64,000 nt of DNA from Gammaproteobacteria bacterium (lineage in GTDB: Bacteria > Pseudomonadota > Gammaproteobacteria > Ga0077536), in contig JBFXAQ010000011.1 in assembly GCA_050184115.1 (NCBI GenBank), positions 88,692 to 152,691 of the forward strand, written 5' to 3'. The position numbers and the translations under genes were made by a program. Below, one piece after another: positions 1 through 30,756 of this stretch; positions within the stretch are counted from its first letter, which is position 1, and each line of letters starts with the position of its first letter. Under the pieces are notes generated by a model that was not told where the DNA came from, searched no databases, and saw only the letters and a list, made by a program, of their open reading frames with translations.

Positions 1-1
1 C

Positions 2-7800: not shown

Positions 7801-8124
7801 GGAATTCGGTGGGGAATTCGGTGACAGTTACTGTATTTCGGCCAGCATCGACCGACCCCACTGCGGGTGCTGCGCGGTAGGCCGACACCGCACCCTTGCC
7901 CTCACGCCCACGATGCGACGGTGCCGTCATTTATGCGGTTCCTGCCGCCGCCCCTCTATCCGGCATTTGGGGACAGTATATGTATGCGTTTATACAGTGA
8001 CTGTCACCGATTTATGGTCACCGATTTTTTTCGCGCTGACACCGTGGTTTTGTCTCTCCGCCGGCGCTGAAGCGGCCGTGGCGCTTATACAGTAACTGTC
8101 ACCTTTTTCGCCCTGTCCCCAAAT
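7801..8124. repeat. Cluster of palindromic REP-like elements (nested/interleaved inverted copies)
   Basis: AATTCGGTGACAGTTACTGTATTTC 7815-7839 (+); ATTTGGGGACAGTATATGTAT 7965-7985 (+); ATACAGTGACTGTCACCGATTT 7992-8013 (-); ATACAGTAACTGTCACC 8087-8103 (-); CTGTCCCCAAAT 8113-8124 (exact reverse complement of 7965-7976). Confidence 0.85.
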
Positions 8125-9200: not shown

Positions 9201-12200
9201 TCAGCATTCTTGAATTCGTTGCAACCGCGCCACCTGGTACGGCGCCTCCATCGCGGCGTAGCCGTCTATGGCGGCGTCGATGAGCGCCCGGCGGGCAGTG
9301 TCGTCGCCCTGGGCGGCGGCGAGTTCCGCCTGCCATTCGGCCAGGGCGGGTTCCAGGACACGGAGTTTCATGCTGGCAATCCATTGCCCGGCCGCGTGCA
9401 GTTCGCGTGCCGCTGCGTCGGCCGCGCTCGCGCCGTCGCGCCGGAGCATCGCGCGCGCGACGACGCTATGGGCGATCGCTTCGAAGTAGTGCCGGCAGGA
9501 GCGCTCGCAGTGGGCGATGACCTGGCGGGCGGTGTCGATGGCAGCGGTGTGGTCGCCGGATTCCATCAGAGCCTCGGCGAGGATGCTGCCGGACCATGCC
9601 GCGTGAACGTGTTCGACGTGATGAAGGTGGCGCTCGAAGGCATCGGCCGCGGCTGCTACCGCGCCGGCGAAGTCGCCGCTGACGAGAGCGGCATAACCAC
9701 GCATCAAGGCGACCAGGGCGACCGTGTTGGCCGGCTCACCTAGGTTGCGTGACCACGCTTCGAATGCCTGGGCGTTGGCACGCAGGGTTTCGGCATCGTG
9801 CGCAATGTGTGCACGCAACGAGTCCGTCAAAAGTGAATAAGCATCGAGCTCCGGCACCTGTTCGCGCTGCGCCTGCCGACGCAACTCCTCGAGCGCGGCC
9901 CTGGCGGCCGCCAGGCGGCCGCCCATGACGAGGAAACCGGCGCGCCACAACAACGCGAAGAGACGCGAGTGGAATACGTGCAGAAGGCCCGTGGCAAGTG
10001 CGGTCGATGGCGCCACCGCAAGTGCCGCATCGCAGGCATCGAGTGCCGCGTCCACCGCCTGCGTCCCAAACGAATCGATAAAGCCGCGAGCGACGTAGGC
10101 CTCGATGACGAGTTCGCGATCGTCTTGTTCGCGGGCGTAATGTTCGGCCGGCTCGAGCGCCGTACTCGCCGCGCGGACGTCGCCGATCGCGGACAACGCA
10201 TGTGCATAAGCCATCGACAGCACATGGCGGTTGCGCACGTCGCCAACGACCGTGGCAAAACGCTGGCCGTCGCATAGAAGGCCTGCAGTGCGCTCGGTGT
10301 CGATACGCAGGCGGTACGAGAATTGGAGCAGGTTCCTGCAGGCAGCGACTCCGAGCGTTGCGGCCTCCTCGTCGATCGGGCCCTCGCGCAGCAACTCGCG
10401 GACATGCTCCCAGTGCATGTGCGCCGCCGGCAGGTCCGTACGCCCGACCCAATCGGCAGCCCGCCAGTGCCACCGCGCCGCGAGCGGCCGCTCGCCGGCT
10501 GCCTGCCAGTGATGGGCGAGCTGTGCGGCCCGTTCGTCGAGCTTGTCGCCGGCCCGGGCCTCGATGGCTCGGGCGACCGCAGCATGCAGCGCGGCGCGCC
10601 GGCTCTGCAGCAGCGACTGGTAAGCCACCTCGTGGGTCAGCGGGTGCTTGAAGGCGTACTCGAACACCGGGTAGAGCGCACGCTCGTAGACGAAGTCACC
10701 GGCCTTGAGCCGTTCGAGCGCGGTGGCGTGCGTGCCGGTGTCGAGGTCGCTGACGGCTTCGAGCAGCGGCCCCGCGAACTCGCGGCCAATCACCGCCGCC
10801 GTCTGCAGCAGGCGCTTGGCCATCTCCGGCAGACGGTCGATACGCGCGGCGAGCACGGCGCGTACGCTGGTCGGCACCACGATGGCGTCGATCGCGCTGA
10901 CCAGGCGGTAGTGCCCCGGTTGGCCGACGAGGTCGCCTGACTCGACCAGCGCGTTGACCACTTCCTCGGTGTAGAACGGGTTGCCCGCCGTCCATTTCAC
11001 GATGCGTGGCACGAGTTCCCCGAGCGAGGCATCGGTCCCGAGCAGGTCACCGAGCAGCTCACCGAGGGCGTCCGCGCCGAGCGGCACCAGCGGCAGTTGC
11101 TGGTAATGCGCCTTGCCGGCGAAGGCCGCCTGGTACTCCGGCCGGAAGTTCAGCACCACCAGGCTCCGCCGCCCCGCCGCCGCCGCCACCAGCTGGTTGA
11201 CGAAGGCGTCGCTGCCGGGGTCGATCCAGTGCAGGTCGTCGATGAGGGTCACGGCGAGCTGACCACCGGCATCCTGGGCTTCGACCAGGCGATGCACCAG
11301 CTCGTAGAGCTGGCGCTGGCGAGCCTCGGCATCCATGCGCGGCGCCGGCTGCTGTGGGTCGGCCACGCCCATGAAATCGAGCAACACCGGCAGCGCGTCG
11401 TGCAGCCTGGCGTCGAGCAGCGCCAGGGTGCCGGCGATCTTCCGGCGCGCCTGCACGGCATCGTCGTCGGCGCGGACGTCGAAGTAGTTCCGGAACAACT
11501 CGAGCACCGGCAGGTAGGGGATGTTCCTGCCGTGCGCCGGGCAGTGCGCCTCGTAGACCGGCAGGCCGCGCCGCCGGCAGTCCTCGACGAACTCGTAGCA
11601 GAGCCGGCTCTTGCCGAGGCCCGCCTCGCCGACGATACCGACCACCTGGCCGTGCCCGCGCCCGGCGTTGGCGAGCGCGGTCTCGAGCACCTGCATCTCG
11701 GCCGCACGCCCGACGAAGCGCGACAGGCCGCGCGCCACTGACACATCCAGGCGGCTGCGCACCGTGCCCGGCGCCTCCAGCTCGAACAGCGCCACGGCCT
11801 CGGCCAGGCCCTTCAGGTTCGTCTCGCCCATCGCGCGCAGGCGGAAATAACCGTGCACCAGGCGCTCGGTCGCACCGCCCAGGTACACGCAGCCCGGCGC
11901 CGCCAGTTGCTCGATGCGCTGCGCGATACCCACCGTCGCGCCCTGCGCGGTGTAGTCCATGCGCAGGTCGTCGCCGATTTTGCCGACTACCACCTCGCCC
12001 GAGTTCAGGCCCAGGCGGAAGCTGAAGTTGAGCCCGTCGGTCAGGCGCAGCTCGTCGGCATAGGTCCGCAAGGCGTCACGCGCGGCGAGCGCGGCGTAAC
12101 ACGCCCGCTGGGCGTGGTCTTCGTGGGCCAGCGGCGCACCGAACAGGGCCATGATGCCGTCGCCGGTGTACTGGTTCACGGTGCCTTCGTAGCGGTGCAC

Positions 12201-12584
12201 GGCCTCGGTCAGGATGGCGAAGTAGCGTTCCAACAGCCGGTGCCAGTGCTCGGGATCCAACTGCTGGGCGAGCTGCATCGAGCCCTGGATGTCGCAGAAC
12301 AGCACCGTCACCTGCTTGCGCTCGCCTTCCAGCGCCGTCTTCGACTGCAGGATCTTCTCGGCCAGGTGCTTCGGCGTGTAGTCGCGCGGCAGGCGTGGCG
12401 CGGCTGAACCGGCCGGCTGCGCTGCTTCGGCGGCTTGCAACGGCGTGCCGCAAGCGCCGCAGAAGTGGTGATCGGGCGGATTCGAGCGAGCGCAGGACGG
12501 GCAGGTGCGTTCGAGGGCCGTGCCGCAGCCGCCGCAGAAGGCGTTCTCCGGCGGGTTATCGCGGCCGCAACGTGCGCAGTTCAT
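9201..12584 (-). CDS. Double zinc ribbon - class III nucleotide cyclase - STAND AAA ATPase - TPR-like protein (paralog A)
   Basis: CxxC/FCxxCG twice at the N-terminus; cyclase motifs VLFCDIQGS and YTGDGIMALFG; Walker A GEAGLGKS; Walker B LIDDLHWID; YAFKHPLTHEVAY; Ala/Leu-rich helical C-terminus; 1127 aa. Confidence 0.93.
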   Translation of the reverse strand: MNCARCGRDNPPENAFCGGCGTALERTCPSCARSNPPDHHFCGACGTPLQAAEAAQPAGSAAPRLPRDYTPKHLAEKILQSKTALEGERKQVTVLFCDIQGSMQLAQQLDPEHWHRLLERYFAILTEAVHRYEGTVNQYTGDGIMALFGAPLAHEDHAQRACYAALAARDALRTYADELRLTDGLNFSFRLGLNSGEVVVGKIGDDLRMDYTAQGATVGIAQRIEQLAAPGCVYLGGATERLVHGYFRLRAMGETNLKGLAEAVALFELEAPGTVRSRLDVSVARGLSRFVGRAAEMQVLETALANAGRGHGQVVGIVGEAGLGKSRLCYEFVEDCRRRGLPVYEAHCPAHGRNIPYLPVLELFRNYFDVRADDDAVQARRKIAGTLALLDARLHDALPVLLDFMGVADPQQPAPRMDAEARQRQLYELVHRLVEAQDAGGQLAVTLIDDLHWIDPGSDAFVNQLVAAAAGRRSLVVLNFRPEYQAAFAGKAHYQQLPLVPLGADALGELLGDLLGTDASLGELVPRIVKWTAGNPFYTEEVVNALVESGDLVGQPGHYRLVSAIDAIVVPTSVRAVLAARIDRLPEMAKRLLQTAAVIGREFAGPLLEAVSDLDTGTHATALERLKAGDFVYERALYPVFEYAFKHPLTHEVAYQSLLQSRRAALHAAVARAIEARAGDKLDERAAQLAHHWQAAGERPLAARWHWRAADWVGRTDLPAAHMHWEHVRELLREGPIDEEAATLGVAACRNLLQFSYRLRIDTERTAGLLCDGQRFATVVGDVRNRHVLSMAYAHALSAIGDVRAASTALEPAEHYAREQDDRELVIEAYVARGFIDSFGTQAVDAALDACDAALAVAPSTALATGLLHVFHSRLFALLWRAGFLVMGGRLAAARAALEELRRQAQREQVPELDAYSLLTDSLRAHIAHDAETLRANAQAFEAWSRNLGEPANTVALVALMRGYAALVSGDFAGAVAAAADAFERHLHHVEHVHAAWSGSILAEALMESGDHTAAIDTARQVIAHCERSCRHYFEAIAHSVVARAMLRRDGASAADAAARELHAAGQWIASMKLRVLEPALAEWQAELAAAQGDDTARRALIDAAIDGYAAMEAPYQVARLQRIQEC

Positions 12585-12745
12585 GCTTCGATCGACCGTG
12601 CATAGGCTTCCCAGCCGGCCACGCCCATCGCGGCCAGCAGTTGGGGCAATTCGGCCAATTCGGTGACAGTTACTGTATTTTCGCGGACGGAAATACAGTA
12701 ACTGTCACCGAATTGGCGGCAGTGGCCGCAGCGTGTGCAGTTCAT
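12581..12745 (-). pseudogene. 54-aa vestigial cyclase-STAND paralog: paralog N-terminus + palindromic doublet + paralog C-terminus, in frame
   Basis: Translates MNCTRCGHCRQFGDSYCISVRENTVTVTELAELPQLLAAMGVAGWEAYARSIEA*. Start resembles paralog A (MNCARCG); end resembles paralog B (LLAAMGVTGWEAYARSIEA). ATGA overlaps with both neighbours. Confidence 0.7.
12654..12717. repeat. Inverted doublet of the palindromic element
   Basis: GCCAATTCGGTGACAGTTACTGTATTT-TCGCGGACGG-AAATACAGTAACTGTCACCGAATTGGC, perfect 27-bp arms. Confidence 0.93.
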
Positions 12746-15700
12746 GCTTCGATCGACCGCGCGTAGGCTTCCCAGCCGGTCACGCCCATCGCGGCCAGCA
12801 GTCGCCGTGCTTCGGCGAGATCCTGCGCCATGGCCTGCGGGTCACCGCGCAGCCGGGCGAGCCCGGCACGTTCCAGCAGGATGAACGGCAGCCACAGCTG
12901 GGCATCCGTGCGTCGAATGATTTCGAGCGCCTCCTCGATCTGCGCTTCGAGCTCGGCGGCGAGATCTGCTTCACCCAGCATGCGCAGCACGCGCGCGCGC
13001 TCGCGACCGTTCGTCATCAACGCGATGTCCAGGCCGTTGGCACGCGCCCGCTCGGTGCCGCGCTCGGCCAGTCGCAATGCTTCCGCAGGCTGGCCCAGGC
13101 CGGCTTTGCACACGGCCTGGTAGCCGTCCATGAGGATGTCCCACTCGCGGCCGGTGCCGCTATCGGCGATGAGCTGGCGTGCACGCGCGAAGAACTCGTC
13201 GGCCTCGATCCATCGTTCCGCGAGGTAGTTCGCCAGCCCGCGCCCGAGCAACGCGAACACCACGTTGTTGTTGGCGCCGAAGCGCTCGGCGATGCGCAAC
13301 GACTCGAGCGACGTGGTTTCGGCTTGCTGCGCATCTCCCAGGCCCCAATACAACCAGGCGCGATCGCTGAGGACATAGGAAGCATCCCAGTGTGAACCGA
13401 TGCGGCGTAGCAGCTCCGAAAGTCGCTTGAAGAACGCATCGAAGTGCGCGGGCGATCCGAGCTGAAAGGCAACGTTGCCACGCAGCGTGAGGGATTCCAG
13501 GTAGGGCCGGTGGCCGAGGATCTCGACGTGGATGGCGTCGTCACTCCCGCCGATCGCGAGAACCTCGTCCAGCACCGCGGCACAGTCGTGCAGGCGGACT
13601 TGCCAGAGCAGTCCGCGCGCAAGGGTATAGCGCGCATGGAGTTGGATCGCTTGGACGGCTTCGGCGTCGGCCAGGGTGATTGCGCGCTTCGCGTGGGATT
13701 CCACCGCTCGCCAGTCGGCCTGCCCGGTCATGAGCCAGGCGTAGGCGGCTTCGATCAAGGATTCGGCTGACCGATCTTCGGCCGACTGCGCCAGCGCGAT
13801 GGCGGTGTGGTAGAGCGCTTCGGACCGGGGCGCCTCGGTGCCGAGGCGATCGAGCGTCGACAGCAACTCGGGGTAGACCTCGAGCAAAAGGCGCGTGGCG
13901 TCCGCGTTGCCGGTGAGCGGCTCCACGAGCGCGCGCGCCTGGTTCCAATGCCGATAGGAGGCGGCGAGGTCGGTGCGCTGGACCCAGCGCGCGGCACGCA
14001 CGTGCCAGGTCGCGGCGACCAGGGACTCGCCGGCCTGTTCGTAGTGGTGCGCGAGGAGGCCAGCCTGTTCATCCGGCCGCGCCGCGACCGCAGCCGCGAT
14101 GGCCTGGGCGATCGCCGCATGGCGCGCGCGGCGGGCGGCTCCGAGTTGCGCATGTAGTGCCACTTCGTGGGTCAGGGGGTGCTTGAAGGCATATTCGGCG
14201 ACCGGGTAGAGGGCCCGTTCGTGCACGAGTTCCGCGGCGAGCAGGTTCGCGAGCGCGCCATCGAACGCGTCGCCGAGATCAGGCAGCACCGTCTCGAGCA
14301 GCGGCCGCGGGAACTCCCGCCCGATGACCGCGGCGGTATAGAGAACCTGCTTCTCGCGCTCGCCGAGGCGGTCGATGCGCGCCGCGAGCAGGGCCTGCAC
14401 GGTGGGCGGGACCTGCAACGATTCCAGCGCCGTGACCAGCTGGTAGGCGCCGCGCGTGCCCGCCAGCGCGCCGGTCTCGAGCAGGGACAACACGATCTCC
14501 TCGGCGAAGAAGGGATTGCCGCCGGATCGTGTGCCGATGAGCACCGGCAGATCGGCGACGGAGGCGTGCGAACCGACCCAGTCCTGCACTAGGGCCGTGA
14601 GTTCGTCCGGCCCGAGCGGCGCCATCGGTAATTGCAGCACCCACGACTTGCGCAGCCAATCGGCCGTGTACTCCGGGCGGAAATTGACCAGCAGCAGGGT
14701 GCGCGTGGTGCTGACCGCCTCAACGATTTGGGTAACGAATTGATCGCTGCCCGGATCGATCCAGTGCAGGTCGTCGATCAGGAGTACCAACGGTGTCGAC
14801 TGCGAGCGCAGGTGGACCAGGCGGCGCAGGAAGGTGAACAAACGCTGCTGACGCACCGCGGGTTCGAGCTGCAACGAAGGTGTGTTCGGATCGGCGACGC
14901 CGAGGAAATCGAGCACGAGCGCGCGATCGTCGGCGAAGTCGTCGTCGAGCAGGGCGAGCTCGCCGGCGATCTTCTGCCGCGCCTCGCGCAGGCCGTCCTG
15001 CTCGGTGATGCCGAACAGGTTGCGCAGGAGCTCGAGCAGCGGCAGGTAGGGGATGGTCTTGCCGTGCGCCGGGCAATGCGCCTCGTAGACCGTGAGCCCC
15101 TGACCGCGGCAGCGCTCGACGAACTCGGCGCACAGGCGGCTCTTGCCGACGCCGGCCTCGCCGACCACCGCGGCCACCCGACCGGTACCGTCGAGGGCGC
15201 GTTGCAGTGCGACGTCCAACGCTTCCATCTCCTCGTCGCGTCCGACGAAGCGCGACAGGCCGCGTGCGCGCGAGGTGTCCAGGCGCGAGCGGTAGCGACC
15301 GGGCGCTTCCAGCACGTGCACGCCGACGGGCGCATCGAGGCCCTTGATCGGCACCGCGCCGAGCGCGCGCAGCGCGAAGTAGCCGTCCACCGCACGGCGT
15401 GTGTGCTCGGACAGGGCGATGCCATCGGCGGGCGCGAGCTGCTCCATGCGTTGGGCCAGCCCGACGGTCTGGCCCTGCGCGGTGTAGTCCATGCGCAGGT
15501 TGTCGCCGATGCGCCCGACCACCACTTCACCCGAGTTCATGCCGAGGCGGAAGGAGAAGTTGACGCCCGGCGATATGCGCAGCTCGTCCGCGTATTCACC
15601 AAGCCGTTCGCGCAGGTGGAGCGCCGCGTAGCAGGCACGCTGGGCGTGGTCCTCGTGCGCGATGGGCGCGCCGAACAAGGCCATGATGCCGTCGCCGGTG

Positions 15701-16110
15701 TACTGGTTGACCGTGCCCTCGAAGCGGTGCACACCCTCGGCGAGGATGGCGAAGAAGCGGTCGAGGATCCCGTGCCAGGTCTCGGGATCGAGCTGGCCGG
15801 CGAGTTCCATCGAACCCTTGACGTCGGCGAACAGCACCGTGACCTGCTTGCGCTCGCCTTCGAGCGCGGACCTGGTCTGCAGGATCTTCTCGGCGAGATG
15901 CGGCGGGGTGTAGTCGCGCGGGACGCGGGCGGGGACGGCAGGCGCTTGCGGTGGCGCTGCCGTCACCGGGGTGCCGCAGCTCGCGCAGAAGCGCGCGGCG
16001 GGTGGCAGCTCGGTATTGCAGTTCGTGCAGTGCGCGGCGCAGGCGGTGCCGCAGTTCGGGCAGAAGCGGGCGCCGCCCGGCAGTGGATGATGGCAGGCCG
16101 CGCAATTCAT
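12742..16110 (-). CDS. Double zinc ribbon - class III nucleotide cyclase - STAND AAA ATPase - TPR-like protein (paralog B)
   Basis: Same architecture as A: VLFADVKGS, YTGDGIMALFG, GEAGVGKS, LIDDLHWID, YAFKHPLTHEVA; 1122 aa. Confidence 0.93.
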   Translation of the reverse strand: MNCAACHHPLPGGARFCPNCGTACAAHCTNCNTELPPAARFCASCGTPVTAAPPQAPAVPARVPRDYTPPHLAEKILQTRSALEGERKQVTVLFADVKGSMELAGQLDPETWHGILDRFFAILAEGVHRFEGTVNQYTGDGIMALFGAPIAHEDHAQRACYAALHLRERLGEYADELRISPGVNFSFRLGMNSGEVVVGRIGDNLRMDYTAQGQTVGLAQRMEQLAPADGIALSEHTRRAVDGYFALRALGAVPIKGLDAPVGVHVLEAPGRYRSRLDTSRARGLSRFVGRDEEMEALDVALQRALDGTGRVAAVVGEAGVGKSRLCAEFVERCRGQGLTVYEAHCPAHGKTIPYLPLLELLRNLFGITEQDGLREARQKIAGELALLDDDFADDRALVLDFLGVADPNTPSLQLEPAVRQQRLFTFLRRLVHLRSQSTPLVLLIDDLHWIDPGSDQFVTQIVEAVSTTRTLLLVNFRPEYTADWLRKSWVLQLPMAPLGPDELTALVQDWVGSHASVADLPVLIGTRSGGNPFFAEEIVLSLLETGALAGTRGAYQLVTALESLQVPPTVQALLAARIDRLGEREKQVLYTAAVIGREFPRPLLETVLPDLGDAFDGALANLLAAELVHERALYPVAEYAFKHPLTHEVALHAQLGAARRARHAAIAQAIAAAVAARPDEQAGLLAHHYEQAGESLVAATWHVRAARWVQRTDLAASYRHWNQARALVEPLTGNADATRLLLEVYPELLSTLDRLGTEAPRSEALYHTAIALAQSAEDRSAESLIEAAYAWLMTGQADWRAVESHAKRAITLADAEAVQAIQLHARYTLARGLLWQVRLHDCAAVLDEVLAIGGSDDAIHVEILGHRPYLESLTLRGNVAFQLGSPAHFDAFFKRLSELLRRIGSHWDASYVLSDRAWLYWGLGDAQQAETTSLESLRIAERFGANNNVVFALLGRGLANYLAERWIEADEFFARARQLIADSGTGREWDILMDGYQAVCKAGLGQPAEALRLAERGTERARANGLDIALMTNGRERARVLRMLGEADLAAELEAQIEEALEIIRRTDAQLWLPFILLERAGLARLRGDPQAMAQDLAEARRLLAAMGVTGWEAYARSIEA

Positions 16111-16117
16111 CGCGGCC

Positions 16118-18094
16118 TCAGTCCAGCCCGGCCTGGCGTAATGCGGCGTTGCGGCGCGCGTCGACGGCCGGGCGAGAAATGCAGAGGTACCCCTGCATCA
16201 GGGCCAGTGAGAGATCGGGCCGTATGCGTCGGCCTTCGACAATCGCTTCGCGCGCCTCGTCCACACGGCCGAGCGCAACATGGTTCATGGCCAGGTAGAT
16301 GTAACCCGTGAAATAACCTGGCTGTACCGCAAGCAAGCGCCTCGCTTCTTCGAGTGCGTCCTCGTGGCGACCGAGTTCCCAATAGGCGAGCGCGAAGTTG
16401 TCGTGGATCCACACCGTGTCCGCGCGAGGATTCAGCCGCTGGGCCCGTTCAGTAGCCATCAGCGCGCCCTCGGCATCGCCGGACACGGCGAAAACGAAAC
16501 CGAGCATGATCCAGGCCATCGGCATACTCGGGTTGAGTTCGATCGCGCGATTCATCGCCTCGAGGCTGGGCGCGATATCGCCGAGGGCAAGATGAAGACA
16601 GCCCACGGCCAGGTGCGCCACCGGATCACGCGGGTCGAGCTCCACGGCCATGCGCGCATCGCGCACCAGTGGCTGAACGAACGCTTCTCGCGCCCCCGGG
16701 GCCATCAGAAAGGGTTCGATGCAACCGGCAAAGGCGGCATACGCAAACGCCGTGGCAAAGCGGGGATCCCGTTCGGTCGCGCGGGTGAACAGTTCACGTG
16801 CCGCACGAAAATCCTCTCCGGTGTAACGATCGAAATGCTGCAAACCGAGCTGGTACAGGCCCCAGGCCTGGAGATCGTGGGTGCCCCGTTGACGAGCTCG
16901 TTCGCCCTCGGCGCGGGTTAGATCGTCGACCAGCGATGCCGCCACGACCTCGCTGATCTCGTCCTGCAGCGCGAAGACGTCCTCGACATCGCGATCGTAG
17001 GTCTCGGCCCACACGTGTTCGGCACGCTGCGCATCGATGAGCTGCGCCGTGACCCGGATGCGATCGCCGCCGCGGCGCACGCTGCCCTCCACCAGATAAC
17101 GGGCGCCGAGCGCACGCCCGACCTCCTTCAAGTCCTGATTGCCACCCCGATACTGGAAGCTGGAGTTACGCGCGATGACCGGGAACGCGCGCCACGCGGC
17201 AAGCCGGGTGATGAGGTCCTCGGCGAGGCCGTCGGCGAAGAAGGCCTGCTCGGGATCGGGCGAAAGATTGTCGAATGGCAGCACGGCGATGGCCGGGCGC
17301 TCGCTGAACGCACCCGCGGTGTCCGTCATGTCGGCGGTCGGCGCGGTGGGGTTGGCGAGCGCGGGTGCCGGGCCTGGCGAAGCCGCGTCGCGCTGGCGAT
17401 GCAGCACGGCGCCGACCGTCAGTAGCAGTGCCGCGACCAGCATCGCGGCTGCCACCAGGCGCGCGTTCGATGCCTGCCATCGCCGCACGGGCGACTGCGC
17501 CATGGCGTCGGGCCGCGCCGGCGGTTCGAGGTTGCCGAGACCTTCGAGACCCACCGTGTGCAGTTCGACCTCGCCGGAAATCCCTTTCAGCCGGTAGCCG
17601 CCACAGTTGCGCCAGGTGATCGCGCGGCGGAACAAGCGATTGTCCACGCGCTGCCGCGCGCTCTCGGCGACGGCGGCCGAGACGAGCACTTGTGCCGGCC
17701 GTGCGAGCGCGGCGATACGCGCCGCGAGGTCGACGGCCAGGCCCTCCACGCGCCGCTGAGGCGTGCCACCATCCGCGGCGTGCTCACTGACCTCGCCGAT
17801 GTGCATGCCCACCCGCACACCCGGCAGCTCGCTGGCCTCGGCGTGCGCGGCCTGGAGCTGCAACGCGAAGTGCATGGCCGCACTCGCCGACTCGAAGGTG
17901 AGAAAGCATCCGTCGCCGGCCCAGTCGACGATCTGCCCGTCGTGTGCGGCGGCGAGTCCTTGCACTAGCGCGCGATGCCGGCTGAGCAGCTCGGCGGCAG
18001 GGTGGTCGCCGTGGCGGGCCTTCAAGGCCGTCGAGGCGACGAGATCGGTGAAGACCAGCGTCAGGATCCGCGACAGGGTGGCGGCCTGGCTCAT
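16118..18094 (-). CDS. Class III cyclase - transmembrane helix - TolB-like - TPR protein (copy 1)
   Basis: LVFTDLVAST / WAGDGCFLTF / RVGMHIGEV cyclase motifs; hydrophobic LVAAAMLVAALLLTVGAVL; RPAIAVLPFDNLS...FFADGLAEDLIT...YLVEGSVRR TolB-like signature; TPR repeats (AVELDPRDP, AIELNPS). Confidence 0.9.
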   Translation of the reverse strand: MSQAATLSRILTLVFTDLVASTALKARHGDHPAAELLSRHRALVQGLAAAHDGQIVDWAGDGCFLTFESASAAMHFALQLQAAHAEASELPGVRVGMHIGEVSEHAADGGTPQRRVEGLAVDLAARIAALARPAQVLVSAAVAESARQRVDNRLFRRAITWRNCGGYRLKGISGEVELHTVGLEGLGNLEPPARPDAMAQSPVRRWQASNARLVAAAMLVAALLLTVGAVLHRQRDAASPGPAPALANPTAPTADMTDTAGAFSERPAIAVLPFDNLSPDPEQAFFADGLAEDLITRLAAWRAFPVIARNSSFQYRGGNQDLKEVGRALGARYLVEGSVRRGGDRIRVTAQLIDAQRAEHVWAETYDRDVEDVFALQDEISEVVAASLVDDLTRAEGERARQRGTHDLQAWGLYQLGLQHFDRYTGEDFRAARELFTRATERDPRFATAFAYAAFAGCIEPFLMAPGAREAFVQPLVRDARMAVELDPRDPVAHLAVGCLHLALGDIAPSLEAMNRAIELNPSMPMAWIMLGFVFAVSGDAEGALMATERAQRLNPRADTVWIHDNFALAYWELGRHEDALEEARRLLAVQPGYFTGYIYLAMNHVALGRVDEAREAIVEGRRIRPDLSLALMQGYLCISRPAVDARRNAALRQAGLD

Positions 18095-18259: not shown

Positions 18260-19177
18260 TCACGGCGGCAGCGTGCCCCCCGTGTAGAACCAGCGCAAGG
18301 CCCGTTCGTCCGGGCACATCGATGCCCCGAGGGCACGGAGGTCGGCGGCGATGGTAGCCGTCATGCCGTCGGCGTGTGCACCGCCGGCCTGGCCTTTGCG
18401 CACCATCGCCCCGGGATTCAGGATGGGTGTCTCGCCGAGTGTCACGCCGTCGAACTTGACGTTGTGCCGCTTCATCCACGCGAACGACGTGTACTCACGG
18501 ATCGCGGCCCAGGATGCCGCATCCGGCGTCACACCGATGAAATCCGCCACGCGGCGCAGGGTGCCCTCGTGATCGCGGGTCATGTCGGCGTAATGCATGC
18601 ACAAGACGTTGGGTTGATGGCGCAGTGGCCACCAGCCATTGAGAAACTCGAACAGGCCGCGATTCATCCCGCTCGCCTCGGCGACGTCGCGGTAGAAGCT
18701 CTCGAAGTCCGGGCGGACGATCGCCGCCCGCGGTATCTGCCACAGTTCGAACCAGGCGTCGCTGTGCTGGTCGAGGAAGTGCTTCATCGACACCAGCGCT
18801 TCTTCCGGGTTGCGCATCACCACGACGTAGCGCACGTCGCGGTCAGCGCCCGGCGCGACGTAGTCGAGTTCCGGGGGCGCGGAGTGCATCTTGAACGCGC
18901 GCGGACGATCCGCCGGCATCCGTGCCACGCGCTCGATCAATTCCTCCACCGGCATGCCGGGGCGGTTCACGAACTCCAGCCACAACACCTCGGCATAGAT
19001 ATCGAGGAAGTCCGCATCCCCGCCGCTCAGCAGCTGGTGGACGATGTTCATCGTCCAGGTCGTACCGCTCTTGACCGGTACCGAGATCACGATGTCCTGG
19101 TCGCGCCACGGGATACGGCGCTGCATGTCGTGGTTGATCCACGGCGGCGGGCCGCCGGGCTGAGCAGGGTTACTCAA
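18260..19177 (-). CDS. PAPS-dependent sulfotransferase (Sulfotransfer_1-like)
   Basis: 5'-PSB motif VPVKSGTTW, 3'-PB motif MRNPEEALVS, C-terminal RKGQAG. Start taken as TTG at 19177 behind GGAG; alternative GTG at 19210. Confidence 0.85.
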   Translation of the reverse strand: MSNPAQPGGPPPWINHDMQRRIPWRDQDIVISVPVKSGTTWTMNIVHQLLSGGDADFLDIYAEVLWLEFVNRPGMPVEELIERVARMPADRPRAFKMHSAPPELDYVAPGADRDVRYVVVMRNPEEALVSMKHFLDQHSDAWFELWQIPRAAIVRPDFESFYRDVAEASGMNRGLFEFLNGWWPLRHQPNVLCMHYADMTRDHEGTLRRVADFIGVTPDAASWAAIREYTSFAWMKRHNVKFDGVTLGETPILNPGAMVRKGQAGGAHADGMTATIAADLRALGASMCPDERALRWFYTGGTLPP

Positions 19178-19277
19178 GGCGATACTCCAAGCGAGCGGGG
19201 CCGGCGGCACCGCGTTGACAGGTATCCGCGTTCAAAGCGTCGTTCGCGCCAGGGGAGGCGGCAGGTTCGCAAGCACG

Positions 19278-20186: not shown

Positions 20187-20543
20187 CTAGAGCGTCATGC
20201 CCAGCAGCCGTGCGTACTCCTCGCTCGGCCGCGGGTTGGTGCCGCCGGCCGGGGCGATGCTGAGATTGACCGAGTCGAAATACTCGTACCAACCGGCCTG
20301 CTGCACGAGCTCGTGGAAGGCGTGGATGTCGGCGGCGCTGCTCAGCGCGAACACGCCGACGTAGCCCTGCGGCGGCGCCTTGGCCAGGCTGCGATCGACC
20401 TCGCTCCAGCCCAAGGTCATCACGCCCTGGGCGCGCGCGGCGTTCACGGCCTGGTCGAGTCCCAGCACGTAGCGGCGCTGTTCGTCCGCCGACAGCGCAT
20501 GCCATTTCTCGTTCGGTTCCCACAGGATGATGACGGTCTGCAT
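20187..20543 (-). CDS. Small conserved hypothetical protein (DUF6616-like)
   Basis: 118 aa with host-like codon bias, co-oriented in the operon; WHALSADEQRRY and GWYEYFDSVN resemble DUF6616 proteins (from memory, unverified). Confidence 0.7.
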   Translation of the reverse strand: MQTVIILWEPNEKWHALSADEQRRYVLGLDQAVNAARAQGVMTLGWSEVDRSLAKAPPQGYVGVFALSSAADIHAFHELVQQAGWYEYFDSVNLSIAPAGGTNPRPSEEYARLLGMTL

Positions 20544-23757: not shown

Positions 23758-23876
23758 TAAATCGGTGACATAAATCGGTGACAGTCACTGAATTTTGCGA
23801 GGTACCGCCGCGGGAGCCCCGGGCAGCCGATGACGACCGCTGCGCTTAGAGAAATACAGTTACCGTCACCAGATTT
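23758..23876. repeat. Inverted doublet of the palindromic element with a tandem partial duplication of the outer end
   Basis: TAAATCGGTGACA-TAAATCGGTGACAGTCACTGAATTT (23758-23795) ... AAATACAGTTACCGTCACCAGATTT (23852-23876). Confidence 0.85.
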
Positions 23877-25199: not shown

Positions 25200-25327
25200 T
25201 TCGGTGACAGTTACTGTATTTCCCGGTGCACGCCACGGGCTAATTCGGTGACAGTTACTGTATTTCGGAGTCAGCGCGAAAGGTGGCGGATTTCATCGGG
25301 AAATACAGTAACTGTCACCGAATTAGC
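25199..25327. repeat. Triplet of the palindromic element (+,+,-) between convergent genes
   Basis: ATTCGGTGACAGTTACTGTATTTC 25199-25222; GCTAATTCGGTGACAGTTACTGTATTTC 25239-25266; GAAATACAGTAACTGTCACCGAATTAGC 25300-25327. Confidence 0.93.
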
Positions 25328-28300
25328 GCGGCCACGCGTGCGGTCCGGGTGCTCATACCGAAGCGTGCGTATTCGTCATGCGCGGTCTGTAACGCCGCGA
25401 GTCGCGCTTGACGATCGCCTTCCCGGCCCGCCAGCTCGGCACGCAACTCGTGCAATTCGCCGGCGTAGAGGCCAAAGCCAGTGCGCTCGAGCAGCGCCTC
25501 GTATTCGTCCAGGGTGTCGTCGATCGCGGCGCGCGGTTCGCCCAGCGCGAGCTGGGCACGGGCCAACAAAGCGTAGGCATGTGGATTCCACACCCCGCCC
25601 GAATCGCGCATGAGCTGGACGCCGGCCCCTGCACTCTCGCGCGCAGCGATGGCGTTACCCAGGCCGAGCTGCGCGCTCGCCAGCAAGGCGTGGAAGCGCG
25701 GCGCGTAGATCTCGCCAGCGCCGAGTTCGCCGATGCGTTCGAGCGCCGCAGAAGCCGTGGCGATAAGCGCCGTCCAGTCTTCGCCGTAGAGAAGGGCGTC
25801 GCACTGGGCGATCGTGGCAACGAGTTCCCACATCACACCCATGTTGCGCGACCAGCGCGAGGTCACTTCGACCCGCATGGCGGCATCTTCACCCCGGCCG
25901 AGTCCGTAGCGGAGATCGATTTCGAGCGCGAGTGAAAAGAAGGCGTTCTCGAGGTAACCGGCCTCGAACGCGGCTGCGCGCACCTGCGGCAACTCGCGCA
26001 GCGCCGCGTCCGGGTCGCGTTGGTGACCCAGGACGTGCAGGCGTGCGTTGCGTGCGGCGAACAACGGGCTGTTGCCCCACACCTCCGCGCCACTGTGCGG
26101 ATCGTTCGGCACCAGGGCGATGACCTCGTCGGCGAGCCGCATGGCTTCCGCCAGCACACCACAGTAGAGGTAGCCCCAGGCGAGCGGCGCACGCGCCCCG
26201 GCGCGCAGCCCGACATCGCCGCTGTCATCGGCAATGCGCACCGCCCTGCCGCAGTATTCGAAATAGTCGCCCCAGGCGTCGTCCACCCAACCCCGTGCGG
26301 TGCCGTAATTGGTATGCAGGATGACGGCGACGTCTGGCACCTCGGCGCGCGCCGCAGCCCGGTTGCCTTCTTCGAACAAAGCGTGGAATTCCTCTTGCCC
26401 GGTACCGGTTCGCGAGGCCAGGTTGAGGGCCCGCGCACAGGCCAGCGCGAGCTGCGCGACCGTCTCGACGCCATCCTCGAGACGCGCCAGATCACGCACG
26501 CGTAACCAGTGGCCGAGCGCAGCTTCGCGATCGCTGCGCTCGCTCCATTCGGCGGCACGCTGATGCCAGTGCGCGGCTGCGCGGGTGTCGCCGGCCGCTT
26601 CGCAGTGATGGGCGATGAGCGCGGCCTGCTCGTCGAGCTTGTCACCGGCCAGGACCTCGACTGCACGGGCGACCGCGCCATGCAACTGTGTACGGCGCGA
26701 TTGAAGCAGCGACTGGTAGGCCACCTCGTGGGTCAGCGGGTGCTTGAAGGCGTACTCGAACACCGGGTAGAGCGCACGCTCGTAGACGAAGTCACCGGCC
26801 TTGAGCCGTTCGAGCGCGGTGGCGTGCGTGCCGGTGTCGAGGTCGCTGACGGCTTCGAGCAGCGGCCCCGCGAACTCGCGGCCAATCACCGCCGCCGTCT
26901 GCAGCAGGCGCTTGGCCATCTCCGGCAGACGGTCGATACGCGCGGCGAGCACGGCGCGTACGCTGGTCGGCACCACGATGGCGTCGATCGCGCTGACCAG
27001 GCGGTAGTGCCCCGGTTGGCCGACGAGGTCGCCTGACTCGACCAGCGCGTTGACCACTTCCTCGGTGTAGAACGGGTTGCCCGCCGTCCATTTCACGATG
27101 CGTGGCACGAGTTCCCCGAGCGAGGCATCGGTCCCGAGCAGGTCACCGAGCAGCTCACCGAGGGCGTCCGCGCCGAGCGGCACCAGCGGCAGTTGCTGGT
27201 AATGCGCCTTGCCGGCGAAGGCCGCCTGGTACTCCGGCCGGAAGTTCAGCACCACCAGGCTCCGCCGCCCCGCCGCCGCCGCCACCAGCTGGTTGACGAA
27301 GGCGTCGCTGCCGGGGTCGATCCAGTGCAGGTCGTCGATGAGGGTCACGGCGAGCTGACCACCGGCATCCTGGGCTTCGACCAGGCGATGCACCAGCTCG
27401 TAGAGCTGGCGCTGGCGAGCCTCGGCATCCATGCGCGGCGCCGGCTGCTGTGGGTCGGCCACGCCCATGAAATCGAGCAACACCGGCAGCGCGTCGTGCA
27501 GCCTGGCGTCGAGCAGCGCCAGGGTGCCGGCGATCTTCCGGCGCGCCTGCACGGCATCGTCGTCGGCGCGGACGTCGAAGTAGTTCCGGAACAACTCGAG
27601 CACCGGCAGGTAGGGGATGTTCCTGCCGTGCGCCGGGCAGTGCGCCTCGTAGACCGGCAGGCCGCGCCGCCGGCAGTCCTCGACGAACTCGTAGCAGAGC
27701 CGGCTCTTGCCGAGGCCCGCCTCGCCGACGATACCGACCACCTGGCCGTGCCCGCGCCCGGCGTTGGCGAGCGCGGTCTCGAGCACCTGCATCTCGGCCG
27801 CACGCCCGACGAAGCGCGACAGGCCGCGCGCCACTGACACATCCAGGCGGCTGCGCACCGTGCCCGGCGCCTCCAGCTCGAACAGCGCCACGGCCTCGGC
27901 CAGGCCCTTCAGGTTCGTCTCGCCCATCGCGCGCAGGCGGAAATAACCGTGCACCAGGCGCTCGGTCGCACCGCCCAGGTACACGCAGCCCGGCGCCGCC
28001 AGTTGCTCGATGCGCTGCGCGATACCCACCGTCGCGCCCTGCGCGGTGTAGTCCATGCGCAGGTCGTCGCCGATTTTGCCGACTACCACCTCGCCCGAGT
28101 TCAGGCCCAGGCGGAAGCTGAAGTTGAGCCCGTCGGTCAGGCGCAATTCGTCGGCATAGGTACGCAAGGCGTCACGCGCGGCGAGCGCGGCGTAACACGC
28201 CCGCTGGGCGTGGTCTTCGTGGGCCAGCGGCGCACCGAACAGGGCCATGATGCCGTCGCCGGTGTACTGGTTGACGGTGCCTTCGTAGCGGTGCACGGCT

Positions 28301-28674
28301 TCGGTCAGGATGGCGAAGTAGCGTTCCAACAGCCGGTGCCAGTGCTCGGGATCCAACTGCTGGGCGAGTTGCATCGAGCCCTGGATGTCGCAGAACAGCA
28401 CCGTGACCTGCTTGCGCTCGCCTTCCAGCGCCGTCTTCGACTGCAGGATCTTCTCGGCGAGATGCTTCGGGGTGTAGTCGCGCGGGACGCGGGCGGGGGC
28501 GGCAGGCGCTTGCGGTGGCGCTGCCGTCACCGGGGTGCCGCAGCTCGCGCAGAAGCGCGCGGCGGGTGGCAGCTCGGTATTGCAGTGGGTGCACTGGGCG
28601 GCGCACGCGGTTCCGCAGTTCGGGCAGAAGCGGGCTCCGTCCGGCAACGAATGCTTACAGGCGGCGCAGTTCAT
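25315..28674 (-). CDS. Double zinc ribbon - class III nucleotide cyclase - STAND AAA ATPase - TPR-like protein (paralog C, mosaic)
   Basis: Start MNCAACKHS at 28674. N-terminus matches paralog B, cyclase/ATPase core matches paralog A, C-terminus is unique. The stop codon lies inside a palindromic element. Confidence 0.92.
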   Translation of the reverse strand: MNCAACKHSLPDGARFCPNCGTACAAQCTHCNTELPPAARFCASCGTPVTAAPPQAPAAPARVPRDYTPKHLAEKILQSKTALEGERKQVTVLFCDIQGSMQLAQQLDPEHWHRLLERYFAILTEAVHRYEGTVNQYTGDGIMALFGAPLAHEDHAQRACYAALAARDALRTYADELRLTDGLNFSFRLGLNSGEVVVGKIGDDLRMDYTAQGATVGIAQRIEQLAAPGCVYLGGATERLVHGYFRLRAMGETNLKGLAEAVALFELEAPGTVRSRLDVSVARGLSRFVGRAAEMQVLETALANAGRGHGQVVGIVGEAGLGKSRLCYEFVEDCRRRGLPVYEAHCPAHGRNIPYLPVLELFRNYFDVRADDDAVQARRKIAGTLALLDARLHDALPVLLDFMGVADPQQPAPRMDAEARQRQLYELVHRLVEAQDAGGQLAVTLIDDLHWIDPGSDAFVNQLVAAAAGRRSLVVLNFRPEYQAAFAGKAHYQQLPLVPLGADALGELLGDLLGTDASLGELVPRIVKWTAGNPFYTEEVVNALVESGDLVGQPGHYRLVSAIDAIVVPTSVRAVLAARIDRLPEMAKRLLQTAAVIGREFAGPLLEAVSDLDTGTHATALERLKAGDFVYERALYPVFEYAFKHPLTHEVAYQSLLQSRRTQLHGAVARAVEVLAGDKLDEQAALIAHHCEAAGDTRAAAHWHQRAAEWSERSDREAALGHWLRVRDLARLEDGVETVAQLALACARALNLASRTGTGQEEFHALFEEGNRAAARAEVPDVAVILHTNYGTARGWVDDAWGDYFEYCGRAVRIADDSGDVGLRAGARAPLAWGYLYCGVLAEAMRLADEVIALVPNDPHSGAEVWGNSPLFAARNARLHVLGHQRDPDAALRELPQVRAAAFEAGYLENAFFSLALEIDLRYGLGRGEDAAMRVEVTSRWSRNMGVMWELVATIAQCDALLYGEDWTALIATASAALERIGELGAGEIYAPRFHALLASAQLGLGNAIAARESAGAGVQLMRDSGGVWNPHAYALLARAQLALGEPRAAIDDTLDEYEALLERTGFGLYAGELHELRAELAGREGDRQARLAALQTAHDEYARFGMSTRTARVAALIR
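26720..28145. repeat. ~1.43-kb direct repeat apparently identical to 10624-12049
   Basis: Offset 16096. Shadow ORFs in the track are identical at both places (e.g. 10696/26792, 11097/27193, 11249/27345). First mismatches seen at 10623/26719 and 12050/28146. Confidence 0.9.
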
Positions 28675-28681
28675 CCCGTCA

Positions 28682-30664
28682 TCATTCCAACCCGGCCTGG
28701 CGCAGCGCGGCGTCGCGGCGTGCATCGACCTCAGGGCGCGCGACGCTGTACAGGCGCTGCACCACCGCGAGCGTCAGCGACGGGTATACCCGCCTGGCCT
28801 CGGCCACCGCGGCGCGCGCGGCGTCGAGCCGGCCGAGCGCCACTTCGTTCAGGGCGACATAGAGATGGCCCCAGTAGTAGTTCGGTCGCGCGGCGACGAT
28901 GCGGCGGGCCGCGACCATGGACTCGGCGTAATTGCCGAGCTCCCACTGGCCGCCGGCGATGTTGTCGTCGGCGAACCAGGCATGGGCGCCGTGAGGATCG
29001 AGTGCGCGGGCACGTTCGCTCGCTGCGAGCGCGGCAGTCGAGTCACCGTTGAGGATGTTCAACCAGCTGAACGCGAGCCACGCCTCTGGTGAGCTGGGGT
29101 TCAGTTCGATGGCGCGGCGGCCAGCGGCGAGGCCCGACGGTACGTCGCCACCCAGCGCCAGGAGCGAGGCCAGCGCAGCATGCGCCATCGGCTCGCGCGG
29201 GTCGACGGCGATGGCCTGGCGCGCGACCTCGATCGCGGCCGCAAGCCACTTCGCCGTGAGCTCTTGCCAGCCGAAATAGACGGCGAACGTTTCGGTGTTT
29301 GCCTGGTGGGCCAAGGCCGCAGCGAAGTCCGGATCGAGCTCCAGCGCACGGGCGAAGTGGGCGCGCGCCTCGGCAAAGGCTTCGCGGGTGTAGCGGTCAT
29401 GGCTCTGCAAGCCGAGTTGGTAGGCGCCCCAGGCGTCGAGGTCGGCCGTGCCGCGCTGACGCGCGCGCTCGGCCTCGGCGCGCGTGACGTCACCGGCGAT
29501 CGAGGCGGCGATGGTCGAACTGATCTCGTCCTGCACCGTAAACATGTCGCTAAGCGCGCGGTCGTAGCTCTTCGCCCACAGGTGTTCGCCGGAGCGGGTA
29601 TCGATGAGCTGGGCGGTGACGCGGATGCGCTCGCCGCCTCGCCGCACGCTGCCCTCCACCAGGTAGCGCGCGCCAAGTTCACGCCCGACCGCCTTCAGAT
29701 CCCGGTTGCCTCCCCGGTACTGGAAGCTCGAGTTGCGCGCGATGACAGGGAAGGCCCGCCAGGCAGAGAGACGAGTGATGAGGTCTTCGGCGAGGCCGTC
29801 GGCGAAGAAGGCCTGCTCGGGATCGGGCGAGAGATTGTCGAATGGCAGCACGGCGATGGCCGGGCGGGACTCGATGTCGTTCATCGGCACGAGCGGGGTG
29901 GCATCTCGTGCAGCGACGAGTGACGCGGCTGCGGGCGGCGCCTCGGTGATCGAGGGCGGCTTCGCCATATGGAAGGCAAGCCCGAGTCCGGCCAGGAGAG
30001 CGGCCACCAGAACGGCCGTCACCGTGGTGCGCAAGGTGGTGGATGCCAGGCCACGCGCCTGCGCGGACCGCCCCTTCCCGCTGCCTGCCGGCGGCTTCAT
30101 GGAGGACAGCCCATCGAGCCCCACAGCACGGATCTCGACCGGTTCGGCGACGCCTTTGAGCACGTAGCTGCCGCAGGCCTGCCACACGATCGGCCGGCGC
30201 AGGCCGCTGTGGTCGATACGCGGCCGCGCGCTGTCGGCGGCGGCTGCCGACAGCAACACTTGTGACGGCCCGGCCAGCGCCGCAATGCGGGCGGCAACGT
30301 CGACCGCGAGCCCGGCGACCTGCACGCGCGCTTCGCCCTCGCCGCCGGGTATCTCGCCGACCTCACCCAGGTGAAGGCCCACCCGCACCGCCGGCAGCTC
30401 GGCATCGTCACCATGGGCCTGCTGCAGGCGCAGGGCGAAATACACGGCGGCACTGGCGGTTTCGAACGTGAGGAAGCAGCCGTCACCGGCCCAGTCGACG
30501 ATGCGGCCGCCGCCGTCCGCGGCGAGCTGGCGCACGAGCGCGCGGTGCCGCGCAATCAAGGTGCCGGCGAACTCGTCACCGTGGCGGGTCTTGAGCGCGG
30601 TCGAATCGACGAGGTCGGTAAAGACCAGCGTTAGAATGCGCGTTCTGGCGGGGTCGTCGGGCAT
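28682..30664 (-). CDS. Class III cyclase - transmembrane helix - TolB-like - TPR protein (copy 2)
   Basis: LVFTDLVDST, WAGDGCFLTF, TM segment VTAVLVAALLAGLGLAF, RPAIAVLPFDNLSPDPEQAFFADGLAEDLITRL, TPRs. Ends AALRQAGLE like copy 1 (AALRQAGLD). ATG 30664 (alternative TTG 30673). Confidence 0.9.
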   Translation of the reverse strand: MPDDPARTRILTLVFTDLVDSTALKTRHGDEFAGTLIARHRALVRQLAADGGGRIVDWAGDGCFLTFETASAAVYFALRLQQAHGDDAELPAVRVGLHLGEVGEIPGGEGEARVQVAGLAVDVAARIAALAGPSQVLLSAAAADSARPRIDHSGLRRPIVWQACGSYVLKGVAEPVEIRAVGLDGLSSMKPPAGSGKGRSAQARGLASTTLRTTVTAVLVAALLAGLGLAFHMAKPPSITEAPPAAASLVAARDATPLVPMNDIESRPAIAVLPFDNLSPDPEQAFFADGLAEDLITRLSAWRAFPVIARNSSFQYRGGNRDLKAVGRELGARYLVEGSVRRGGERIRVTAQLIDTRSGEHLWAKSYDRALSDMFTVQDEISSTIAASIAGDVTRAEAERARQRGTADLDAWGAYQLGLQSHDRYTREAFAEARAHFARALELDPDFAAALAHQANTETFAVYFGWQELTAKWLAAAIEVARQAIAVDPREPMAHAALASLLALGGDVPSGLAAGRRAIELNPSSPEAWLAFSWLNILNGDSTAALAASERARALDPHGAHAWFADDNIAGGQWELGNYAESMVAARRIVAARPNYYWGHLYVALNEVALGRLDAARAAVAEARRVYPSLTLAVVQRLYSVARPEVDARRDAALRQAGLE

Positions 30665-30671
30665 CACGCTC

Positions 30672-30756
30672 AAATTCGGTGACAGTAACTGTATTTCTTG
30701 CGAAATTCCGTCCGCTTCGAACGCATGGCGGAAATACAGTTACTGTCACCGAATTT
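30672..30756. repeat. Inverted doublet of the palindromic element at the right edge of the accessory region
   Basis: AAATTCGGTGACAGTAACTGTATTTC (30672-30697) ... GAAATACAGTTACTGTCACCGAATTT (30731-30756), perfect 26-bp arms. Confidence 0.93.

Follow-up and report, generated by a model that had tools for sequence, protein, structure and literature searches.

Probable gene conversion between neighbouring cyclase/STAND NTPase paralogs of a gammaproteobacterium

The 64,000-nucleotide (nt) stretch of DNA analysed here, called the window throughout, belongs to a Gammaproteobacteria bacterium of the lineage Ga0077536 (assembly GCA_050184115.1, contig JBFXAQ010000011.1, positions 88,692 to 152,691 of the forward strand). 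The source genome, G000, is a metagenome-derived draft of 18 contigs and 5.7 Mb. The window carries three paralogous genes, A, B and C, all on the minus strand, and the subject of this study is C (25315-28674), whose sequence is a mosaic of tracts shared with the other two. C encodes a protein of 1119 amino acids (aa) consisting of a double zinc ribbon, a class III cyclase, an AAA_16 STAND NTPase and a helical-repeat C-terminus. Its open frame reaches upstream to 28725; the start at 28674 is in line with those of A (9201-12584) and B (12742-16110). The copy of the cyclase/NTPase core present in A lies about 16 kb from C on the same strand. Both B and C are preceded, at a distance of 7 nt, by a gene whose product of about 660 aa combines cyclase, TolB_N-like and TPR domains: X1 (16118-18094, minus strand) is the upstream partner of B and X2 (28682-30673, minus strand) lies upstream of C, the two being paralogs with 55% protein identity. 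The family of A, B and C has nine members in G000: A, B, C and H on the window's contig, E, F, G and I on a second contig, and D on a third, where it is split across two reading frames.

Pfam recognizes in A, B and C a DZR domain, a cyclase (Guanylate_cyc, PF00211, 72.4 bits for a cut-off of 21.9) and AAA_16 (74-100 bits, C having 74, for a cut-off of 32.6), while matches to TPR families in the C-terminal ~450 aa are weak in A and B and absent from C. The C-termini of C and A are predicted to fold as helical solenoids (predicted local distance difference test scores of 94 and 92), and the model of C's C-terminus matches 137 PDB chains at E<=0.001, the top ones listed being TPR proteins such as APC5 and LGN. 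In the family alignment, the Walker A lysine of the NTPase is present in 49 of the 49 filled rows, an aspartate or glutamate of Walker B in 51/51 and a conserved histidine likewise in 51/51. Thus the architecture that an original prediction, made from the letters of the window, had assumed for these proteins, a STAND NTPase with a repeat sensor, is borne out by domain matches, conserved residues, predicted solenoids and structural relatives. We infer that the C-terminal solenoid would act as the sensor, and the C-terminal modules are called sensors below.

Read from its 5' end, C starts with a first zinc ribbon (28587-28674, minus strand) that is B-like but old, with 16 differences from B in 88 nt (82% identical). 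The second zinc ribbon and the linker that follows (28441-28586, minus strand) form a recent B-type tract, which shows only 3 differences from B 15877-16022 in 146 nt, and 3 in the 135 nt, ~28451-28585, that had been singled out as nearly identical to B. The original prediction was therefore right to equate a zinc ribbon of C with that of B as regards the second ribbon and linker, but not as regards the first. Next comes an older A-type tract (28146-28441, minus strand), covering the linker and the first half of the cyclase, with 7 differences from A 12050-12345 in 296 nt; all 7 are synonymous and lie in 7 codons, in agreement with the few silent changes announced for this stretch of ~0.3 kb. 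The youngest A-type tract (26720-28145, minus strand) is, as had been claimed, identical to A 10624-12049, without a single difference over 1426 nt. It spans the remainder of the cyclase and the entire NTPase, up to the conserved FKHPLTHEV motif.

The abrupt end of identity that had been described at this point holds for the DNA, where C and A part at 26720, but the protein identity goes on for 10 codons (codons 652-661). In this short stretch (26692-26719, minus strand), the protein of C is still that of A (AYQSLLQSRR), although 6 of the 10 codons differ silently, among them an AGC/TCG serine pair. These silent differences represent the original, old divergence of C and A. Further 3' of the 1426-nt tract, C and A differ at 24 and then 38 positions per 100 nt. 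As a result of this arrangement, A and C have identical residues from 73 to 661 (C numbering), that is, over the whole cyclase and NTPase engine, and differ in their zinc ribbons and in their TPR-like C-termini. The C-terminal module of C (25318-26691, minus strand) consists of 458 aa predicted to form a 24-helix TPR-like solenoid. Its identity to the corresponding module of A is 45.7% in the first ~129 aa and 29.0% in the remainder; the values are 33.3% and 25.9% for B and C, and 36.4% and 27.2% for A and B. With identities of 25.9-45.7% in the three comparisons, the last ~450 aa have indeed diverged strongly.

The background against which these tracts stand out was obtained by aligning 8 paralogs of G000 in 28 pairs. 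Apart from A-C and B-C, the 26 pairs have a core identity of 0.609-0.712 at the nucleotide level, and none of them contains a long tract with an identity of at least 0.88. Windows of 120 nt reaching 0.88 number 58 in A-C and 7 in B-C; four of the 26 other pairs have 1-3 isolated ones, located on a conserved motif. Along the 744 informative sites of the A/B/C triplet, 75 sites scored b and 4 scored a are followed by a nearly unbroken run of a. The maximum chi-square is 418.9, with the breakpoint at C 28471/28467, a value that none of 2000 permutations reaches. The mosaic pattern is far beyond chance.

A perfect repeat in a metagenome-derived draft of 18 contigs might have been created by the assembler or polisher, through collapse, duplication or evening out of copies, the real core of C being diverged. 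Three metagenome runs of one study, labelled X1, X2 and X3 (labels of runs, not of genes), contain 0.90-0.94 of the sampled words of the region, and were available as short-word contigs only; runs X4-X7 contain 0.05-0.08 of these words. The contig of the repeat, which corresponds to 26720-28063 or equally to 10624-11967, has a depth of 163 in run X1, 74 in run X2 and 8.7 in run X3, and the listed single-copy contigs around it have depths of 84-88 (plus one of 100), 36-43 and 4.1-8.0, respectively. The repeat is thus about twice as deep as its flanks in all three runs, which supports the existence of two copies. Moreover, unique contigs coming from the C-termini of A and C end at 10653 and 26749, each exactly 30 nt inside the repeat, showing that both enter the same repeat, and no alternative, diverged core joined to C's C-terminus was found among the run contigs listed. 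With the repeat present twice in direct orientation, and with both the flanks and the DNA in between single-copy, the pieces can be joined in one linear order only. That the assembler kept the copies apart where they differ is also shown by the 7 silent changes next to the repeat, in the 296-nt tract. The artefact gains something from the lack of a read spanning the repeat and from the 1-4 sites per run at which run contigs and assembly differ within it; on balance we regard it as very improbable. We therefore take both copies of the core as real, duplication by the assembly being unlikely. The variant sites within the repeat, which are not the same from run to run, are 10782, 11004/27100, 11106, 11124, 11706 and 11757; they may correspond to strain variation or to small differences between the copies masked by contig simplification.

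The relative age of the tracts was estimated by counting, among identical residues, those encoded by a different codon. Between C and A, this is the case for 0 of 474 residues in the 1426-nt tract, 6 of 104 in the 5' zone and 33 of 68 just beyond the 3' breakpoint; between C and B, the counts are 0/40 for codons 30-72 and 9/25 for codons 1-29. For comparison, the orthologs of A and B in G004 (Ag4 and Bg4), the only one of the five other genomes of the genus to carry the family at E<=1e-100, differ in their cores from A at 135 of 534 and from B at 107 of 550 such codons. It follows from these counts that the tracts differ in age and that all are younger than the split from G004. Extrapolated from 296 to 1426 nt, the 7 differences would correspond to about 34, but the longer tract has 0. 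When polarised with the gene of G004, 4 of the 7 differences fall on the C side, 2 on the A side and 1 (28146) is ambiguous; changes on both sides fit with mutation in both copies after an earlier conversion. By the codon counts, the C locus consists of an old backbone carrying younger patches of at least two ages.

The direction of transfer can be approached through G004, where a single cluster has the order glutamine amidotransferase (GATase), acyl-CoA dehydrogenase (ACAD), thiamine pyrophosphate (TPP) enzyme, CoA-transferase, enoyl-CoA hydratase, X, the B ortholog, Ag4, short-chain dehydrogenase/reductase (SDR) and poly-GAF protein. The order B, A, SDR is kept between the two genomes. B and its ortholog are 88% identical over their full length, and the first codon of Ag4 overlaps the end of the B ortholog (ATGA). 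In windows of 90 nt, A and Ag4 share 0.70-0.94 of their nucleotides over the N-terminus and core, all windows but one being at 0.79 or above, a match comparable to that of B with its ortholog, and the N-terminus common to A and Ag4 is not that of C. In addition, a partial database protein, P0049, combines the A/C core (90-92% aa identity) with the start of an A-type C-terminus (83%). Because of the synteny and ortholog-level match with Ag4, and of the pairing seen in P0049, the core appears to be at home at the position of A, so that A (10624-12345) is the likely donor and C the recipient.

An alternative is that C was the donor and A the recipient, or that the core of C is a recent duplicate of A that arrived with an X2-C cassette. 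The synteny with G004 is interrupted between 30869 and 25199, the 5.7-kb X2-C block that lies there being absent from G004, and the same palindromic element (see below) occurs at the acyl-CoA dehydrogenase end of the block and just inside its other end; furthermore, the core subfamily of A and C usually carries C-type sensors, and A's sensor belongs to another subfamily. Yet A's core matches at the ortholog level the G004 gene located at A's position, in continuity with A's own N-terminus, and P0049, in which this core is likewise joined to an A-type sensor, shows the combination to be older than G000. As for a cassette carrying a duplicate, the same peptide with saturated silent differences past the breakpoint indicates that an old homologous gene was already at the C locus, and X2, like the first 88 nt of C, is old. 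We therefore consider this alternative, in either form, quite improbable. Among species representatives no ortholog of C or A was found, the best match being 43% (in G004) for the C-terminus of C and 30% for that of A, and no close relative of C occurs among 5.8 billion proteins (best, 57%), so that the state of C before conversion is not observable.

We consider it likely that C underwent ectopic gene conversion more than once and received its core from A. C would be a long-standing paralog that was patched repeatedly, by non-reciprocal homologous recombination, from the X1-B-A cluster. At least three tracts of different age can be made out: an A-type tract of intermediate age (28146-28441), a very recent A-type tract (26720-28145) and a recent B-type tract (28441-28586). 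Homologous recombination of the RecA type is the mechanism that we infer. Several findings are those expected of gene conversion: a near-identical tract lies between diverged flanks, the donor is vertical to the outgroup with both loci in place, and the trees of the segments are incongruent. Together with the sharp bounds and differing ages of the tracts, this upholds the recent gene conversion of the original prediction. The tract ends fall in the two best-conserved motifs of the family, PRDYTPKHLAEKILQ before the cyclase and YAFKHPLTHEV, with its invariant histidine, at the end of the NTPase; outside both motifs the paralogs are 30-55% identical in DNA. Tracts would end at domain borders because the flanking zinc-ribbon and sensor DNA is too diverged for homologous exchange, and selection is not needed to account for them.

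A number of observations weigh against this explanation or narrow it. In the B-type tract, B and C are equally distant (0.81) from G004's B ortholog, so that the donor of this tract is not settled. The polarity rests on one outgroup genome and one partial protein. C has scattered B-like sites at 28405 and 28369, which a single event with patchy mismatch repair may have produced. The linkage of the two copies is deduced from depth, junction contigs and topology, with no read across the 1426-nt repeat, and the three runs, which come from one study that is possibly the assembly's own source, are not independent. Lastly, within the repeat the run contigs and the assembly disagree at a few sites, such as 27100 (G>A in run X1), which may mean that the copies are not strictly identical in every cell, or that polishing evened them out.

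The original prediction regarded the sensor of C as private to this protein, which turned out to be wrong: besides C itself, 31 database proteins (P0002-P0032) match C's C-terminus with 37-57% identity over 94-100% of its length, about 30 of them at 42-57%. The C-terminus of A has 5 database matches at 34-40%, plus P0049. In the tree of C-termini, C groups with P0002 (starred support of 100) within a clade of 33 rows (starred, 100) that also contains Ag4 and D, and A is grouped with the A-type matches (starred, 100). The tree of the cores disagrees with this, as an exchange of modules would have it. Here A, identical to C, forms a clade with P0049 and Ag4 (starred, 99), whose sister consists of 22 rows, namely 21 carriers of C-type sensors and D (91% support, unstarred); the two clades together are starred (100), and the cores of the A-type matches are placed elsewhere (starred, 100). 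Of the 29 carriers of C-type sensors included in the core tree, 21 thus belong by their core to the sister clade of that of A and C. Six others (P0010, P0012, P0017, P0019, P0020 and P0023) have a distant core and make up a starred core clade of their own. A constraint that holds A together with P0049 and the A-type matches on the core, a group picked after the tree had been seen, is rejected by the approximately unbiased (AU) test with a log-likelihood (lnL) difference of 447 (p 2e-62).

These placements suggest that the original core of C was probably already of the A/C subfamily. Since the sensor of C and its present core belong to the same subfamily, conversion would have homogenised C with a related neighbour and created no new combination. 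The deeper chimera is A, in which an engine of the C subfamily is joined to an A-type sensor (9204-10595, minus strand), of a subfamily other than that of A's core. Indeed, past HEVAYQSLLQSRR the identity between A and Ag4 drops from ~0.9 to 0.3-0.5, whereas that between B and its ortholog stays at 0.70-0.96. The C-termini of A (window 9204-10623) and Ag4 (L110 ~14560-15946) are modules of different subfamilies, pointing to a swap of sensors between species at the same junction at which the tract of C ends. Therefore the domain swapping that the original prediction saw as generating receptors does not apply to C, which was homogenised with a related paralog, but finds its counterpart in A versus Ag4 and in the wider family.

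It could be argued that selection maintains the mosaic, conversion keeping the engines of A and C identical for co-assembly or for the same output while the sensors diversify. The exclusively silent nature of the 7 differences in the older tract, the sensor swaps at the same junction, both from species to species and in the wider family, and the occurrence of C-type sensors on at least two distinct core lineages all lend themselves to this view. However, silent-only changes testify to purifying selection on the protein and not to selection for conversion, the mechanical limits on homologous recombination would also place tract ends in conserved motifs, and a long tract exists in just one of the 28 paralog pairs. 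We hold the proposal to be rather doubtful.

The closest solved relatives of the cyclase domain are 2w01 and 3r5g. The metal-binding aspartates D96 and D140 and the arginine R221 are present in C, and in 44/44, 45/45 and 47/47 of the filled rows, respectively. The canonical adenine-specifying lysine and transition-state asparagine are absent from C, which has Gln136 and Gly217 instead. The roles of these positions (metal-binding aspartates, transition-state arginine and asparagine, adenine-specifying lysine) are those of class III cyclases in general, mapped via alignment. Position 136 is a glutamine in 41 of 45 rows and a lysine in 4, and position 217 a glycine in 41 of 47 rows, an asparagine in 4 and a serine in 2. 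The codons of Gln136 and Gly217 lie at ~28267-28269 and ~28024-28026 of the window; the rows with lysine and those with asparagine are equal in number (4 and 4). The conservation of this Gln/Gly deviation suggests a working enzyme with unusual chemistry, its product and activity being uncertain. We also considered whether X1 or X2 might supply the lysine and asparagine missing in A, B and C, in a heterodimer like that of mammalian C1 and C2, and rejected it: X1 has an aspartate at both positions (alignment with 1ybt and 4wp8).

Class III cyclases need dimers. If A, B and C behave like other STAND proteins, a ligand or partner would be recognised by the solenoid; this would release nucleotide-dependent oligomerisation, and oligomerisation would pair the cyclase domains into dimers. 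A candidate reader of the resulting cyclic nucleotide is a giant tandem-GAF protein of 4073 aa with a C-terminal histidine kinase, because its gene (window 1-7705, minus strand; whole gene G000:C11:84175-96396) adjoins the cyclase cluster in both G000 and G004. This gene contains 14 DNA repeat units of ~504-528 nt within the window alone. In a broader proposal, the two motifs would serve as recombination joints throughout the family; zinc-ribbon heads and TPR sensors would be shuffled on a shared engine within genomes, as in C, and between species, as in A versus Ag4 and in the C-type sensors found on two core lineages; and conversion would keep co-resident engines identical, so that differently tuned receptors could co-oligomerise and give one cyclic-nucleotide signal, possibly read by the poly-GAF kinase. 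We put this forward as speculation and think it distinctly unlikely in its entirety.

The neighbouring genes are metabolic, including genes of acyl-CoA and tryptophan metabolism. A PADLOC scan gave PycC matches to the cyclase domain only and no match to a defence NTPase, and for these two reasons, the cyclase-only matches and the metabolic neighbours, we discarded the idea of a defence island. A sulfotransferase gene (18260-19210) and a DUF6616 gene (20187-20543) have no match above 150 bits in the syntenic stretch of G004. Paralog D (G000:C4:88012-91387), whose two open frames encode 811 and 464 aa, is either a pseudogene or the product of a sequencing error; compared with C, it shows 75% identity in the core and 38% in the C-terminus.

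The X genes, too, are mosaic between species. At an identity like that of orthologs, the X gene of G004 (L110 7220-9199) resembles X1 in its 5' half (0.73-0.91, never falling below 0.78 in the initial 990 columns), while its 3' half is close to X2 (0.80-0.93). No other donor for the 3' half of X1 or the 5' half of X2 was found in G000, the best matches being of 69-77% over short stretches.

The palindromic element mentioned above has arms of ~19-26 nt, each with the near-palindrome ACAGTWACTGT. A three-armed copy at 25203-25319 marks the downstream boundary of the X2-C block; it abuts the stop codon of the acyl-CoA dehydrogenase gene and overlaps that of C, which it supplies. A copy with 1 mismatch per arm lies at 30678-30750, just upstream of the start of X2 and ~120 nt inside the end of the block. 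Another (12662-12709) separates B from A. It is contained in an insert of 161 nt, at the ends of which the junction between the end of B and the start of A is directly duplicated over 93 nt (12563-12655 and 12724-12816, 88% identical); the B stop and A start evidently once formed an ATGA overlap, as they still do in G004. The element is also present at three other intergenic sites of the window, the sites listed including 7820-8103 and 23777-23870. G000 has 16 exact arms, 12 of them on the window's contig, and the reversed pattern, taken as a control, has none; 4 of the 5 other genomes of the genus also carry the element. A candidate scenario, which would account for several of these observations, is that a circle was excised by crossover between tandem paralogs and then reinserted. 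This would explain both the B-like N-terminus of C and the orthology of the 3' half of X2 to the X gene of G004.

How does C compare with known systems? Like the STAND regulators of the MalT type, it has an AAA_16 NTPase followed by a helical-repeat sensor, but its output is an N-terminal cyclase, where those regulators have a DNA-binding domain at the C-terminus. The cyclase, NTPase and early repeats align to positions 281-953 of the 1267 of TIGR03903, the TOMM system kinase/cyclase fusion, with 264-265 bits; this is below the curated cut-off of 705.75, and the N-terminal kinase part is missing. X2 likewise falls below the curated cut-off (400) of TIGR04510, the putative peptide modification system cyclase, and no peptide-modification genes were found among the scanned neighbours. 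The similarity to the PycC models of Pycsar (65-78 bits to PDLC00734) goes no further than the general cyclase fold; Pycsar does not include the NTPase and TPR modules, and no Pycsar effector gene was seen nearby.

In mycobacteria, proteins of the Rv0386 type combine a cyclase, a MalT-like ATPase, TPRs and a LuxR helix-turn-helix (HTH) domain (bioRxiv 10.1101/2024.03.06.583649). They resemble C in the succession of class III cyclase, AAA_16/MalT-type NTPase and TPR, and in the glutamine at the adenine-specifying lysine position. C differs in that its Pfam matches at E<=0.01 include no HTH family, in its N-terminal double zinc ribbon, and in the glycine that replaces the transition-state asparagine in 41/47 aligned family members. 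Rv0386 itself probably has a glutamine-asparagine substrate pair, the passage being ambiguous on this point.

In the evolutionary process, the closest parallel is with eukaryotic NLRs. Clustered paralogs of plants are reported to undergo interlocus gene conversion and intergenic exchange, for example in the RPP8 family (PMC6771003), and diversity-enhancing evolution is described for fungal NLRs (PMC13449251). As in these systems, STAND-type paralogs appear to have exchanged tracts and become mosaics with a shared nucleotide-binding module and divergent repeats. Unlike them, the present case has a bacterial host, a cyclase as effector, and TPR-like instead of leucine-rich, WD or ankyrin repeats; the converted part is the conserved engine instead of the repeats, and nothing points to a role in defence. 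That paralogs undergo gene conversion is textbook knowledge, and mosaic NLR genes are familiar from both plants and fungi. To our knowledge, genes overwritten by conversion have rarely been documented for bacterial receptors of the type of C. The present case adds a clear instance of a familiar evolutionary process, in a protein architecture that is known but uncharacterised; the family of putative receptors with zinc ribbon, cyclase, STAND NTPase and TPR is widespread. An adaptive reading, with the locus as a generator of receptors, is possible, and the view of the field would change only if such a role, or one in co-assembly, were true. A and C, having identical catalytic engines, constitute a natural sensor-swap pair, ready-made for probing what the TPR modules sense. 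This is an unusually clean bacterial case: its tracts are dated, an outgroup indicates the direction, and in a sister species the sensor was independently replaced at the same junction.

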